Below are positions 5,275 to 15,220 of a DNA stretch of 64,000 nt, one piece after another. The notes below the pieces were generated by a model. It did no database searches. It had not been told where the DNA came from and saw only the letters and a program-made list of their open reading frames with translations. The stretch's first letter is position 1; each line of letters opens with the position of its first letter. The DNA comes from Blasia pusilla (Eukaryota), in the NCBI GenBank assembly GCA_050084515.1, contig CM114271.1:20274001-20338000 (forward strand), given 5' to 3'. A program made the translations under genes and the position numbers.

Positions 5275-5865
5275 TGTCACGTCTTTTAGGATAGATCGGT
5301 GAGTAGAGCGCTTTTGTGAGTAGTGGAGGATACGCTCAATAGGTCGAGGATGACCTGCTGAGGCCCAAGAAACATGAGAGAGCATGTTTCCCCTTCGTTT
5401 CGGCTCATTTGGAGCCATATTGAGGAACTTACTATTTTAGGTAAGTACCATTTTGAGTATATGATCGACTTTCTTTTTTTGGTAAGTGGCTCCTGACCTC
5501 CTGCGAAGCTTCTGGACCAGTAGGTCCATAAAATTCACTAGGATAAGCTGTATTGTTAAACCAAACAAAACAACAAGCCTACATGAGGTCAAGAGCCAAG
5601 GAGGTGACTTGGGAGAATAGGTTACCATGGAGAGAGCTTGGGAGAAGGGAGGGGTATACCTCAAGGAGAGAGTGCTTGAGAGTTCATTCTCTGTTTGTTG
5701 AATCTCTTGGCATGAGGCGGCGGAGCTATGGTCCCTTGCCTTGTGAGTGTAACCCAAGCCTCTCATTAGGAGAGTGGGTTTGGTTTGACATGAGAGAGAG
5801 AGAGAGTGCACACCTTTGAGAGTTATGGTGTGAGATGGTATAGAGAGAGATTAGATCTTACTTTA
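5275..5865 (+). repeat. 5' terminal repeat A1 of copy 1
   Basis: Direct repeat of 14579-15092, with an extra ~80-bp insert at about 5502-5580. Confidence 0.9.
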
Positions 5866-5880
5866 CAAAGAGAGAATGAG
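5865..5880 (+). promoter_or_regulatory. self-complementary primer-binding site of copy 1
   Basis: ACAAAGAGAGAATGAG is the exact reverse complement of CTCATTCTCTCTTTGT at 14916-14931, ~28 nt downstream of a TATA-like site in repeat A. The A1 copy at 5683-5698 has two mismatches. No TGG-type tRNA PBS is present. Confidence 0.75.
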
Positions 5881-8800
5881 AGCTACAATGCGGGAGCTTG
5901 CTGGAGTTTTGCTTTGTTTGCAGGTTAGGGACCGTGTTCCCTCCTTCATGACTCATGGGAGTGCTCACGGGAGCAAGAGTCATTCAGTTTGCTGTTTTCC
6001 GTAACCGTTTTTTCGTACAAGAGAGTGGCGCGCGGAAGCGCTGCCCAAATGTTGGTACAATTTGAGTGTGGGGGCCGATTACCTACTCCGGTGCTCTTGA
6101 GAGCACCATGTAGCTTTCTGATTTGTCTTTTCACAGGTTTTACATTTTCGTTGGGAGAAATCAGCGCGGAAGCGCTGTCGAATTTTGTGTAGAAGAAAGA
6201 GACGTTGTGGTTTACGACAGTCCCCATCAATTTTTATAGGGTTTTCCGATTCAACATACTTTTAACGCCATCATAGATCTTGAAGCTATGCAAGTTGTGC
6301 AACAGATGGTGCGTGATTTGGAGCTGCAAGTAGAAAGTTATGGCAAATTTTGTAATTGCCAATTTTAGGGTAAAAGTCGAAACCCTAAAGCAGTAGCTGC
6401 TGTTGGCGGCGCCGTAACCGTCGACCGCCGTGGCCGTGGCCGTCGTCCAGGCTGTCAACCCGTCGCCAAGACGTCAACCCTTTGCCATGCCCTTCAACCC
6501 GTCAGCTGGCCTATTACCCGTCAAGTTGTCGTTGATCGACTATTACCGTTGCTTAGCCGACGGTTGGGAGCAACGGCCGTTGACTGGTCGTGTCTATGCA
6601 TCGCCAGGTAGTTGTTCAGGCCGCCTTTGTCACACCTTTGTGGAGCTCATCATCGACCGACTGGAGTACTACTCTGGACGACGTGTGACCTAGTGATTTA
6701 TGGGGTCCAAGTTTTCTAGCGGCATTACTATGTTTTGAGTTGGTAGCCGCTCCACGAAGATCCAGTACCGTGACGTGACGCCCGTAGCCGCAACGCACCA
6801 CCGATTTCCGCACCGTGCCGCTCGTGGCCGCACCGCACCGTCTCGATCGCGGAGCCGCACCATCATTGTGGAGCAGATTATGTTTTGCTGGTTTGAGGAG
6901 TTTGGCTTCACAACCGAGTTGGGGTCGAGGTTTGCAGTTGCTGCGGAGAGATTCAACATTTACTGAGGTTACCCATCCTGGTCTTTTGCCCTATATGTGT
7001 GAGGGAATTCCAAGAATTGGGCAGTTATTTGACATATTGGGTTTGTGTGGATGCAGAGAGCATCGTTTATGTGTGTGGATTAAGGGACATAGACATGTGT
7101 GGGATGTCCAAAGTTGATGGGTAGGTTGTCGATGAGATGATATCCTGGTTGATTTGCCGCACCACACCGTCTGTTGCCGCACGTCACACAACTCGGTGAG
7201 AGGGAGTGTAGATCGAGTGCCGCATGTTTAGTCTGAGTGATTACTCACAGACGGGAGAGTGAGTGTGTGCGAGGGCACGAGGATCATCACGGCGTCCTTT
7301 CAGGACTTTGAGAGGCGAGGTGATGAACCTAAGAGTAACTTTAGAGGGTTTACACGGAGTGGCGTGAGGTTTCGAGGGTCTCCACATGAGGGACCCCCTC
7401 GACCTCCTTCTGTGTCATCCTCAGACGAGGGGAAGGGTGTAGAGGAGTTTGTGAGCACATCGCCACACATTGTGAGTGGTCCTACCAGTTGGGCGTACGA
7501 GATGGACGAATGGGGTAGAGGGCCGCGTAGGTTCTCAAGTGCAGTAGGCACCATAGAGTTGCACGACTTCATCGAGGAGGTTAGGAGTTGGTGCGACTCC
7601 GAGCGGGCCAGGAACTTTAGAGAGTTCAACCCGTTTACAGCATGGAACAGTATGTTCCAGCATTTAGAGGGGGCACCCATGGACGATTACCATGAGTTCT
7701 CTCAGAGATATGCTCGTGAGATCGAGGCGTGGAGGCTCTACTATGACCCACATTACGTGTCATGGACAGAGCCAGTCCCAGATGAGGAGGAGGAGTCAGG
7801 AGAGGCTACTTCATCTTCCCCTAGTGATGTACTAGAAGGGGTGAGTCGGACTGGGGCAGTTGCATGGTCCAGTCGGGTTCGTCTTAGGCTCAACCCTGTG
7901 GTTGAGTTCTTTGCTGAGTTGAGGGCGAGCTACCAAGGGGTACAAACGGAGAAGTTGTAGAGCATCCACGACTTCCAGAGGCGCCCGGGTGAGAGTTTGC
8001 GTGAGGCTTACACTCGCTTGCGCCGGTTGATCAACGTCACTCAGGGGGTGACAGAGGCTCAGGCTATCCAATCATGGTACAAGATGCCGCACCCGTGTCG
8101 TCAGGGTCATGGACATGTGCCTCAGCATGGAGGAGGAGATGGTGCTACACCAGGGTGTTATCAGTGTGACTACTGTCAAAGGTATGGTCATACACGCGCC
8201 AGGTGTTTTAGTTTACATCGTGAGTTACGTCCGGATCGAGGGCCAAAGAGGGCACCAGAGCGAGTAGCCGGTCCGGGTGGGCTAGAGATCGTGCACCTGG
8301 TGGTCTTGTTGGGGGACGAGGAGTTGGAGTTGCCCGACAAGGTGGTGGAACTGCCCGTGGAGGAGGTAGAGTCCTACCACCTAGACGCGTCGAGGGAGAT
8401 GTCGGGCGTGAGGCTAGGATGGCTTCTCAGATACATATGCTACAGGAGCAGATTGCCGCTATGGCATAGAGATTACCCGATGCCGGATCCGTGGCATCGA
8501 CATCATATGGAGCAGCCAGAGATATGGAGGATCCTGGTTGGATGTGCGGGGTTGCCCATATGGAGGCAGCCGCAGTTGTGACGCGTGGAGCAGCCGTAGA
8601 GTTGGATCCATAGCGAGGGGAAGCCAAGAAACAAACTAGGCTTCCTCAGTCTTTCACGTTGTTCGAGGCGATGAGGACCCCATCGATGGATCCTCATCAG
8701 AGTTCCTGGAGAGTTGGTGATGTTGTTGGTGTGCAGGCACGAAGGGCGATGGGAGAAGCGAGTGCGACGACTCCTATTGTTGATGCTCAGGAGGGGCATG

Positions 8801-9890
8801 TATTGAGCACGTTGTTGGGGGCGGCCACCATTGTGTACCGCGCTCCTTTATTTTCTGCTTCCGATGTTATGACGTTGGGGGGTACGACCGTCGAGGCTTT
8901 TCGGCTCGCCGCTACGGTATGTGAATATGGAGTTGGAGTTCCTGCATCACGTTCAGAGGTGATTGCACAGGAGGTGATGGACCTGCCCTTGGAGCGGATG
9001 CTCGGGCCGTCCACGTCAGATTCATGGCAGGCTGCCGCTGCTAGGATGGCGGAGATGCCCGCTAGACCCGCGATAGAGCGCGCCATGGCGTCTCCTGGTG
9101 TTGTGTTGGTGGATAACCAAGGAGAGGTCTTCCAGTTGGTGAGTCCCGGAGGTAGAGCTTTTAGTGTGTAGCGCGTCTTGTTGGATTCAGGAGCGCAACC
9201 CCTGATGTTGGGGAAAGCGTCATTCAGAGGATTGGGCTTGACGAGAGCCGATGTGGAGCGTTGTCCATTCCAGATAGAGACATCTTTGGGCGGAGTGAGT
9301 ACTACACAGTATATCACGCGACAAGAGGTCATGGTGAGGATTCGCGCGGGACATCCTACAGATGAGTCCATGGTGCGAGCCAAGGCGATAGTGACTGATG
9401 CAGAGTCCTACGACGTCTTGGTTGGTGGAGTAGTGTTATACCCGATGGGGTTTTTTCCCTGGATTACCGGGAAGAGTCAGCGTCCTACAAACCAGGATGG
9501 GAGTCAGGTGATGGGCGCCTTAGCTCATTACCCGTTTGATTCACATGTGCAGTGATCGAGCAACGGCCAGGAGAGATGACGACCTTAGCAGCATTTAGCA
9601 GTGCCATCACTTGGCCTAGTGATTTGATTGAGGGACATGTCCATGCAGAAGATACTCCCGTTCCTGATATTTCTATGGAGAGGAGTGTTATGGTAGCCGC
9701 ATCCTTCCGTGGAGGAGAGGTGCCGCTGTGGGGCTCGATTAAGGAGCTTCGACGATTGGCAGATGAGCACGTGCAAACCGCGTGGAGCGAGGCGTTTGCA
9801 CCGGAGCATGACGGGTCTGAGGAACCCGAGGTAGCAGGGATTGCTACAATGACACCCTTGGATACCACACCCATTGTGTGGTGTACCCCG

Positions 9891-14118: not shown

Positions 14119-14259
14119 CATTGTATGTTGTGTGGTTCTGCCCGTGGTGCGGCCATGATGCTAGTCTGTGATGGATGTTCGAGAGGTAGGCATATGGCAT
14201 GTCTGACGCCATCTCTCACTAGGGTTCCTCGGGGACGATGGATGTGTCCCAGATGTACA
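14119..14259 (+). other. PHD finger (C4HC3) at integrase C-terminus, copy 1
   Basis: CMLC-x11-CDGC-x4-H-x2-C-LTPSLTRVPRGRWM-CPRC, followed by one residue and a stop. Confidence 0.88.
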
Positions 14260-14448
14260 TAGAGGAGATACTAGGTAGGTTTCGATTTCGACTTGTTCTG
14301 TGACATGGATGACAGGAAGGCGACAAATGATGAGGCCACATGAGCACCCGGCCTTCTTGCTCTTAGCATCCGAGAGATGTGTGTTATGGTAGGTAAGGAT
14401 TGATGGCTATATGGAGTTAGAGGGACCTAACCACCAGCTAGGGGGGCG

Positions 14449-15220
14449 ATTTGAGATATTTTAGTACTTCTTGTCTCGTTGTTTGGATGCCATGAGTTAG
14501 TATGGGATCGTGCATGTTTGTGTGTGTGTTTGGTGATAACGATGTATATTGTGTAGCCATGTGTATGCGCACGACAGTTGTCACGTCTTTTAGGATAGAT
14601 CGGTGAGATCTAGTAGAGAGCCTTTGTGAGTAGTGGAGGACACGTTCAGTAGGTCGAGGATCACCTACTGAGGCCCCAGGAAACCTAAGAGAGCAGGTTT
14701 CCCCTTCGTTTCGGCTCATTTGGAGCCATATTGAGAAGCTTACTATTTTAGGTAAGTGACATCTAGAGTATATGATCTACTTTCTATTTTTGGTAAGTGG
14801 CCCTTGACCTCCTATATCAGGTCAAGAGCCAAGGAGGTGACTTGGGAGAAAAGGTTACCATGGAGAGAGCTTGGGAGAGGGGAAGGGTATACCTCAAGGA
14901 GAGAGAGTTTGAGAACTCATTCTCTCTTTGTTGAACTTCTTAGCATGAGGCGGTGGAGCTATGGTCCCTTGCCTTGTGAGTGTAACCCAAGCCTCTCATT
15001 AGGAGAGTGGGTTTGGTTTGACATGAGAGAGAGTGCACATCTTTAAGAGTTATGGTGTGAGATGGTGTAGAGAGAGATTGGATCTTACTTTAATTGGAGA
15101 TATTTTAGTACTTCTTGTCTCGTTGTTTGGATGTCATGAATTAGCATGGGATCATGCGTGTTTGTGTGTGTGTTCGGTGACAGTGATGTATGTTGTGTAG
15201 CGATGTGTATGCGCACGACA
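14449..15220 (+). repeat. 3' terminal block B1-gt-A2-B2 of copy 1
   Basis: B1 14449-14576 and B2 15093-15220 are 128-bp direct repeats. A2 14579-15092 repeats A1. The block is preceded by the PPT TAGGGGGGCG. Confidence 0.9.

Follow-up and report, generated by a model that had tools for sequence, protein, structure and literature searches.

Split direct repeats and putative integration sites inside the long terminal repeat of a DDE-integrase retrotransposon of Blasia pusilla

The 64,000 nt of Blasia pusilla DNA analysed here (CM114271.1 of assembly GCA_050084515.1, positions 20,274,001-20,338,000; “the window,” whose positions serve as coordinates throughout) contain copies of a retrotransposon with a DDE integrase whose repeats are split: in place of two equal long terminal repeats (LTRs), copy 1 (5275-15220) carries a block A at its left end and the blocks B, A, and B at its right end. 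Judged from the sequence, the ends set by replication, at the polypurine tract (PPT) and the primer-binding site (PBS), and the ends set by integration, at the terminal TG and CA and the target-site duplication (TSD), lie one length of B apart, and the end-recognition sites of the integrase in this lineage would not be the ends of the reverse-transcribed LTR. We believe, with a probability of roughly one half, that the integrase cuts an internal palindrome of a cDNA whose ends have been joined, most simply a two-LTR circle, and inserts the opened molecule.

Split repeats in two window families

The order in copy 1 is TSD, A1, a coding region running from gag through protease, C5 cytosine DNA methyltransferase (DNMT), reverse transcriptase (RT), and RNase H to an integrase with HHCC and DDE motifs and a PHD finger, and then PPT, B1, two nucleotides, A2, B2, and TSD. 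The outer ends read TG...CA and lie inside the 4-bp duplications. The repeats and their borders are as follows, with the assignments to U3, R, and U5 being putative:

5271-5274, no strand: left TSD, ACTA; the same 4 nt again at 15221-15224
5275-5865, plus strand: A1, starting TGTCACG; probably the 3' portion of U3 followed by R and U5
14440-14448, plus strand: PPT, AGGGGGGCG, adjoining B1
14449-14576, plus strand: B1, probably the 5' end of U3; last letters CACGACA
14577-14578, plus strand: spacer GT, within the palindromic B-A joint
14579-15092, plus strand: A2, starting TGTCACG; no gap before B2
15093-15220, plus strand: B2; the A2-B2 joint, between 15092 and 15093, would bring the U5 end to the U3 start
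15221-15224, no strand: right TSD, ACTA, matching the left one

Copy 3, from another family, is built in the same way:

52859-52862, no strand: left TSD, ATGC
52863-53490, plus strand: A1 (TGTCATGG...), with a primer-complement site at 53240-53252
61274-61284, plus strand: PPT, CTAGGGGGGCG
61285-61402, plus strand: B1
61403-61404, plus strand: spacer GC
61405-62029, plus strand: A2
62030-62147, plus strand: B2
62148-62151, no strand: right TSD, ATGC

A preliminary description of this DNA, made from its letters, had given copies 1 and 3 this split layout, and the repeats were located at the positions it had claimed, with the TSDs outside. It had also held that A differs between the families; BLAST of A from copy 1 against A from copy 3 gives no match, and the two B blocks have only their terminal ≈37-55 nt in common. 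Identity between A1 and A2 is 88-92% in blocks in copy 1 and 91.4% in copy 3, and between B1 and B2 it is 90.6% and 91.5%, respectively, so that within one copy the two pairs are about equally diverged. A1 of copy 1 contains a 78-bp insertion at about 5500-5577 that A2 is without, and which RNA reads and DNA contigs of the family bypass (joint from 5499 to 5578).

Ends defined by reverse transcription

Metagenome contigs scanned with an integrase alignment yielded 80 related loci, with integrases 54-82% identical to the query. The PPT is nearly identical in copy 3 and in most of these loci, and in copy 1 B1 directly adjoins it, as the preliminary description had said. The same description had A ending at the PBS, and a PBS was indeed found there, apparently one of the self-priming kind (16 nt in copy 1 and 13 nt in copy 3):

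5865-5880, plus strand: PBS of copy 1, ACAAAGAGAGAATGAG, the exact 16-nt reverse complement of 14916-14931 in A2
5683-5698, plus strand: primer-complement site in A1, 14/16 against the PBS (0/100 shuffles reach the score); putative 5' end of the transcript
14916-14931, plus strand: primer-complement site in A2, 16/16 against the PBS
5650-5661, plus strand: TATA-like motif, GGGGTATACCTC, ≈28 nt upstream of the primer-complement site
53489-53501, plus strand: PBS of copy 3, ATCCTAAGGAGAT, a 13-nt exact complement of 53240-53252

At the related locus L005, A1 is directly followed by 17 nt that are complementary to a site 176 nt short of the A end. The PBS words of copy 1, copy 3, and L005 are unrelated to each other, which argues that the pairing has been maintained through sequence change. 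At 9 of the 12 5' ends, the PBS is complementary to a site that precedes the A end by 171-254 nt, with a score attained by no more than 1 in 100 shuffles; at the other three, L011, L041, and L065, it is not above shuffles. The TATA-like motif of copy 1 is also found upstream of the site in copy 3, and a similar motif, GGGGTATA, lies ≈25-30 nt upstream of the site in L004/L005, L015, L024, L029, L040, L041, and L042. None of the three PBS words (copy 1, copy 3, and L005) starts with TGG, and a PBS of the tRNA type was rejected, the PBS being complementary to the element's own A. The pairing suggests a self-priming PBS like that of Tf1, in which the transcript would start at the primer-complement site and prime on the PBS.

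With plus-strand priming at the PPT and the PBS at the end of A, the reverse-transcribed LTR would be B-NN-A: the left cDNA end, set by the PPT, would coincide with the B start, and the right one, set by the PBS, with the A end. U3 would then be composed of B and the first part of A, and R-U5 of the terminal 171-254 nt of A.

Ends defined by integration

The ends so defined are without TG and CA, as B starts with ATT... or AGTT... and A finishes with ...CTTT or ...TTTC. The TG and CA ends appear to lie back to back inside the reverse-transcribed LTR, which gives the B-A joint the look of an att site. The joint reads CA(C/T)GACA-RY-T(G/A)TCA(Y)G in 22 of 22 distinct copies, with the consensus CAYGACA-RY-TGTCAYG; unmutated, it forms a palindrome of up to 16 bp, and its spacer is invariably purine-pyrimidine (AC in 10 copies, GC in 5, AT in 4, and GT in 3). 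Genomic copies start at the TG of this joint and finish at its CA.

A perfect 4-bp TSD flanks all four full-length copies of the form A-int-B-A-B, where int is the internal region (copies 1 and 3; AAGG in L005 and TCTC in L011), and four of the six A-int-B copies, the other two matching in 3/4 and 2/4 positions. Overall this amounts to 8 of 10 full-length copies, with 1/256 expected for each. On the 3' side, A2 and B2 meet in what appears to be an exact joint of U5 end and U3 start, which would necessarily be remade in each cycle; it is exact in most copies, with rare extra nucleotides (+1 nt in L007 and ≈17 nt in L009).

Architecture of related loci

Architecture was counted in the metagenome loci and the window copies together. 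The 3' end was evaluable in 48 of the 80 loci:

3' end PPT-B-NN-A-B: 31/48 loci, 19 distinct flanks
3' end PPT-B, then flank: 16/48 loci, 12 distinct flanks
3' end interrupted: 1/48 loci
3' end at the contig end, not evaluable: 6 loci
no B detected, mostly short loci: 26 loci

At all 12 5' ends (10 loci and 2 window copies), one A block is present and the PBS region comes next; neither B-A nor A-B-A occurs at any of them, and no canonical BA-int-BA copy with flanking TSDs is found among them. Upstream of the divergent B-A-B loci L056, L061, L072, and L076, no A1 was found within 7.7-10 kb. The architectures foreseen in the preliminary description thus largely bear out, A-int-B-A-B being common (31/48), A-int-B existing (16/48), and BA-int-BA being absent (0/12); the A-B-A-int-B form that it had thought possible did not appear (0/12).

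In well-separated families, B1 and B2 of the same copy are mutual nearest neighbours (0.98 vs. 0.69, and 0.91 vs. 0.66-0.69, to the nearest other). In the one abundant young family, a B1 has its closest match in the B2 of another copy as often as in a B1, and overall the partner B is nearest in 24 of 42 cases. There is thus no distinct lineage of B1 or of B2, and both are renewed from one template in each cycle.

An ordinary LTR element rearranged after its insertion, by local duplication of B, unequal recombination, or nesting, or else an assembly artefact, might come to mind in a window that is heavily nested from 20 to 38 kb and whose “solo” fragments (see below) are not clean. We give this explanation almost no credence: the same layout recurs in two window families whose A blocks do not align with each other, as well as in 19 distinct metagenome insertions with integrases 55-82% identical, a canonical copy is found at none of the 12 5' ends, and B1/B2 and A1/A2 are equally diverged. 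The origin of B1 as a sporadic duplication, and likewise an assembly artefact, are rejected on these data. The feature is heritable and widespread, and it is no artefact.

The single-B class is a different matter. It is quite possible, though we hold it tentatively, that all primary insertions are A-int-B-A-B and that single-B copies are secondary, having lost sequence by recombination or slippage between B1 and B2, or having been collapsed in short-read assembly. L025 (7606-8171, B-A-B) and L041 (12229-12345, single B) have one 3' flank, 99% identical between them, and element bodies that are 91% identical; the discrepancy is either a B1 × B2 deletion polymorphism or an error of metagenome assembly, by chimerism or collapse. 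Four of the 6 A-int-B copies still have their TSDs, which a deletion would not remove, and B1 and B2 are direct repeats merely ≈280-630 nt apart. Against this, the window, which comes from a genome assembly, holds a single-B 3' end of its own (31150-31671), so the form exists in a genome assembly, whatever its origin; and the explanation touches the A-int-B class only, fitting either account of how the A2-B2 joint is formed.

Coding capacity and classification

The coding region of copy 1 is composed of the following pieces:

7241-8581, plus strand: gag-like open reading frame (ORF) pieces; CX2CX4HX4C knuckle by eye, Pfam zinc-finger match weak and below cutoff
9172-9555, plus strand: protease-like piece; LLDSGA motif by eye, no Pfam match
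9540-10879, plus strand: C5 cytosine DNA methyltransferase domain, degraded; PF00145, best E 1.2e-7
11645-12013, plus strand: reverse transcriptase; RVT_1, E 1.9e-25
12176-12616, plus strand: RNase H, Ty3/gypsy type; RT_RNaseH_2, E 4e-28
13018-13686, plus strand: integrase, HHCC and DD35E; Integrase_H2C2, E 4e-13, and rve, E 2e-13
13765-14262, plus strand: C-terminal extension of the integrase ending in a PHD finger; PHD, E 2.5e-11

Pfam was run on the 98 stop-free ORFs of 70 aa or more from the two strands of copies 1 and 3, and matched RT, RNase H, rve, H2C2, PHD, and DNA_methylase. PF00145 is matched in 2 of the 98 ORFs; a first Pfam pass over the single DNMT-like ORFs of copy 1 had given no match at E 0.01. 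Homologs of the DNMT part from Marchantia, Calypogeia, and Sphagnum score above the PF00145 cutoff, and an Atlas look-up of this part returned the general family only (C5 methylase, Streptophyta). In an alignment of the integrase with its relatives D70 is invariant, and D130 and E165 are nearly so; the best named relatives are proteins of Calypogeia fissa and Marchantia polymorpha, alongside many unnamed metagenome proteins.

The order gag, protease, C5 DNA methyltransferase, RT, RNase H, DDE integrase, and PHD finger marks the lineage, on its domain matches, as one of Ty3/gypsy-type LTR retrotransposons. The RT-RNase H-integrase order and the TSDs are those of Ty3/gypsy elements, and two equal TG...CA LTRs are missing; of the features of the DIRS order, the split direct repeats A1...B1A2B2 are present, and a tyrosine recombinase gene and the absence of TSDs are not. 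A tyrosine recombinase (PF00589-type) matched none of the 98 ORFs of copies 1 and 3, although a strongly decayed gene could escape in these degraded copies. The preliminary description had expected just this, along with an HHCC/DDE integrase and TSDs, and both the Integrase_H2C2 and rve matches (13018-13686) and the 4-bp TSDs of copies 1 and 3 agree with it.

These observations bear on whether the element might move as PAT, Ngaro, or DIRS elements do, by a tyrosine recombinase supplied in trans, with the DDE integrase irrelevant and the 4-nt matches coincidental. The A1...B1-A2-B2 arrangement is the split-direct-repeat layout, drawn also for SymbioDIRS-Dnmt3 in the figure material of PMC5890265. 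Such movement is very improbable in view of the perfect 4-bp flanking repeats in 8 of the 10 full-length copies, the TG...CA ends with inverted termini, and a DD35E integrase conserved across relatives beside ORFs with no recombinase domain.

The DNMT sits between protease and RT, and the PHD finger is in the place of the chromovirus chromodomain (copy 1, 9540-10879 and 13765-14262; copy 3, 57396-57893). A PHD finger is found in 54 of 61 testable related loci, and a DNMT at the expected place in 26 of 35. Six divergent loci (L053, L056, L062, L076, L077, and L080), with integrases ≈58-60% identical, have kept the B-A-B 3' end; the PHD finger is kept in five of them and lacking in L062, and tblastn finds no DNMT upstream of any of the six. 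The split-repeat layout may predate the acquisition of the DNMT or reach further than it, or the DNMT may have decayed past detection in the divergent loci.

DNA and RNA reads

Contigs from DNA runs and raw reads of two RNA runs, all under the same species label, were placed on 5000-15500 at 90% likeness. The element family is very abundant in the DNA runs. Coverage of the element by the stranded RNA-seq is ≈10:1 in favour of sense; by the stranded-library convention, a first mate about 10-fold stronger on the minus strand means sense transcripts. RNA reads pass from the end of B over the 2-nt spacer into the start of A (loose ends at 15220), and RNA reads also cross the A2-B2 joint, with 8/25 and 8/21 at 15092 carrying the joint 1 nt shorter. 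The reads across A2-B2 are only 90-95% like copy 1, so they come from other family members. No clear start or end of a transcript emerged from the RNA reads over 5000-15500. Loose read ends at 14453 show the PPT followed by a different B (TGGTACAC...), like the B of the abundant metagenome family, which argues that a second subfamily is expressed in the same species label.

Proposed mechanism

In the mechanism that we favour, the two cDNA ends would be joined after reverse transcription, most simply as a two-LTR circle. The integrase would then open, as an endonuclease, the palindrome in the LTR next to the PBS, with a 2-bp staggered cut after each CA, and insertion of the opened molecule would give A-int-B-NN-A-B. 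This would be the sole form to keep a 3' copy of R, and thus the only one to be recopied. A-int-B would be a dead-end product, arising from a one-LTR circle, from cutting of both palindromes of a linear cDNA, or from a later B1 × B2 deletion, and it might also reflect assembly collapse. The extra B2 may serve the element, for instance as its own 3'-end processing region, because transcripts cross A2-B2.

Several points weigh against this proposal. The mechanism is read from the anatomy of the copies, with the circle, a free cDNA bearing the joint, and cleavage by the integrase all being putative. A random choice between the two identical palindromes of a circle predicts A-B-A-int-B equally often, and this form is seen at 0 of 12 5' ends. 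The passage of transcripts into B2, as told by reads across A2-B2, implies a layout of R and poly(A) unlike that of the simplest model. Metagenome contigs can be chimeric, as L025 and L041 illustrate, which makes the size of the A-int-B class uncertain. Finally, all inspected copies are degraded, with no intact copy or polyprotein in the window or at L005, L011, L056, or L076.

A one-sided jump at the level of reverse transcription, or an att site that includes the A-B joint, would explain the absence of A-B-A-int-B. The first of these is the basis of an alternative with the same att logic, in which the U5-U3 joint is formed during reverse transcription and not by ligation of a circle. The plus strand might, for example, switch from the U5 end to the start of B; the resulting linear cDNA would be longer at its right end, or concatemeric, and the integrase would cut at the leftmost TG and at a downstream CA. 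This accounts for the one-sidedness of the layout (B-A-B at 31/48 3' ends, A-B-A at 0/12 5' ends), for both observed classes, A-int-B and A-int-B-A-B, through the choice of the first or the second CA, and for a joint that is exact but for rare additions (+1 nt in L007, ≈17 nt in L009). Blunt end-joining gives an exact joint equally well, no sequence feature favours a one-sided jump, and we know of no jump of this kind documented in LTR elements; we consider it unlikely, if worth keeping in mind.

The circle interpretation had already been put forward in the preliminary description. Its anatomical part has held up well in the PPT, the PBS, the palindrome, and the counts, and its corollary, A-B-A-int-B, has not (0/12); joining of the cDNA ends into a two-LTR circle stands as the best available reading, inferred as it is. 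Taken further, a DDE integrase may use joined-end, two-LTR cDNA as its regular substrate, cutting a 10-16 bp palindrome internal to each LTR, and the layout would be a case of convergence on the split repeats of tyrosine-recombinase elements; this wider claim we advance only tentatively.

Other pieces in the window

Further pieces of related copies lie between 20 and 38 kb:

31150-31671, plus strand: 3' end of a further copy, with PHD end, degenerate PPT-like motif, one B, and flank; without A2-B2
20338-20830, plus strand: A-B fragment (“solo”), with the terminal 7 nt of B and AC, then A and B; no TSD
33203-33851, plus strand: A-B fragment (“solo”), with GT, A, and B; no TSD; in the internal region of another copy

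An A-B joint between 31533 and 31534, attributed to copy 2 in the preliminary description, is not there: no A homolog is found, and 31442-31671 consists of an ORF end, the degenerate PPT-like motif, a single B, and flank. The two “solos” do contain the A-B joint, as had been said, and they are not TSD-flanked, no matching flanks being present. The left edge of the first abuts another repeat family at 19745-20337, which is like the reverse complement of 49932-50631. The second is flanked by gag-like (32692-33041) and protease/DNMT-like (33863-34120) pieces that belong to another copy. Around this GT-A-B unit, within 32692-34120, ≈1 kb of the internal region is absent, and the whole may be a copy that was rearranged or suffered an internal deletion.

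Copy 2 (minus strand, 23139-27328) has lost its 3' end to another insertion near 23147, and its architecture is not readable. An unrelated repeat with inverted copies (22811-23109 vs. 36616-36913, and 22654-23147 vs. 37155-37648) is what interrupts it there. A long (CT)n tract occupies 21925-22000.

Relation to known systems

In the textbook view, LTR retrotransposons and retroviruses integrate linear cDNA, the ends of the LTRs serve as the integrase sites, and circles are regarded as dead ends. Self-priming is reportedly known from Ty3/gypsy elements of the Tf1/sushi type through the work of Levin and co-workers. The PBS of the Blasia element would resemble theirs in complementing a site in its own LTR downstream of a TATA-like motif, and not the 3' end of a tRNA; unlike the Blasia element, Tf1/sushi elements have ordinary equal LTRs.

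Split direct repeats are said to characterise PAT and Ngaro elements (Poulter and Goodwin), and a circular two-repeat intermediate is the usual explanation for the layout of PAT, Ngaro, and the DIRS order. The Blasia element shares the A1-internal-B1-A2-B2 arrangement with PAT, Ngaro, some DIRS-order elements, and SymbioDIRS-Dnmt3. It differs in having an HHCC/DD35E integrase, TG...CA ends, and 4-bp duplications, whereas PAT, Ngaro, and DIRS have a tyrosine recombinase and no target duplications.

Cleavage of the palindromic LTR-LTR joint by retroviral integrase is reported, in the available portions of the papers, for foamy virus (PMC1180852) and HIV-1 (PMC1905944, PMC4372172). The presumed reaction of the Blasia element is similar in that a DDE integrase would convert an internal CA...TG palindrome into integration-competent ends. 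In retroviruses it is the joint of the circle that forms the palindrome, along a route that is minor or debated; in the Blasia element each LTR has the palindrome templated within it, and the A-B joint of the presumed circle is another, non-palindromic site.

The nearest precedent is KnitGypsy-Dnmt3 of Klebsormidium nitens, a Pol of Gypsy composition that encodes a C5 DNA methyltransferase (de Mendoza 2018, PMC5890265) and whose repeat structure is, according to the legend of Fig. 4c, “the same as that of a DIRS retrotransposon,” or A-coding-B-A-B in the notation used here. In its accessible portions, the main text of that paper gives no TSD, PPT, PBS, palindrome, or mechanism for it. Both the DNMT domain inside Pol and the A-coding-B-A-B layout recur in the Blasia element, which differs in its bryophyte host and in having its best integrase and DNMT matches in Calypogeia, Marchantia, and Sphagnum, with no Klebsormidium sequence among those returned, the likeness to Klebsormidium being one of published description. 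“Streptophytes (Gypsy-DNMT3)” are mentioned in passing in the accessible text of a 2026 preprint. As far as our searches reach, the name “KnitGypsy” occurs in PMC5890265 only, and the texts retrieved, in the portions available, hold tyrosine-recombinase work and reviews and no paper explaining split repeats in a DDE-integrase element. The kind of arrangement is therefore known, and a DDE element with it is not without precedent. Within the same searches we met no description of the bryophyte members, the putative self-priming PBS, an att-like palindrome inside the LTR, the TSDs, or A-int-B copies, nor of the proposed mechanism.

A widespread streptophyte lineage would place its integrase sites inside the LTR, and its genomic copies would demand a joined-end molecule. 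If confirmed, this would be a natural system in which a DDE integrase acts on an internal palindrome, the question of circular precursors would be reopened, and the DIRS/PAT-like look of a Gypsy-type element, printed without explanation, would be accounted for. LTR finders that expect two equal LTRs will miss or misannotate these abundant bryophyte elements, together with their repeat-less A-int-B derivatives.

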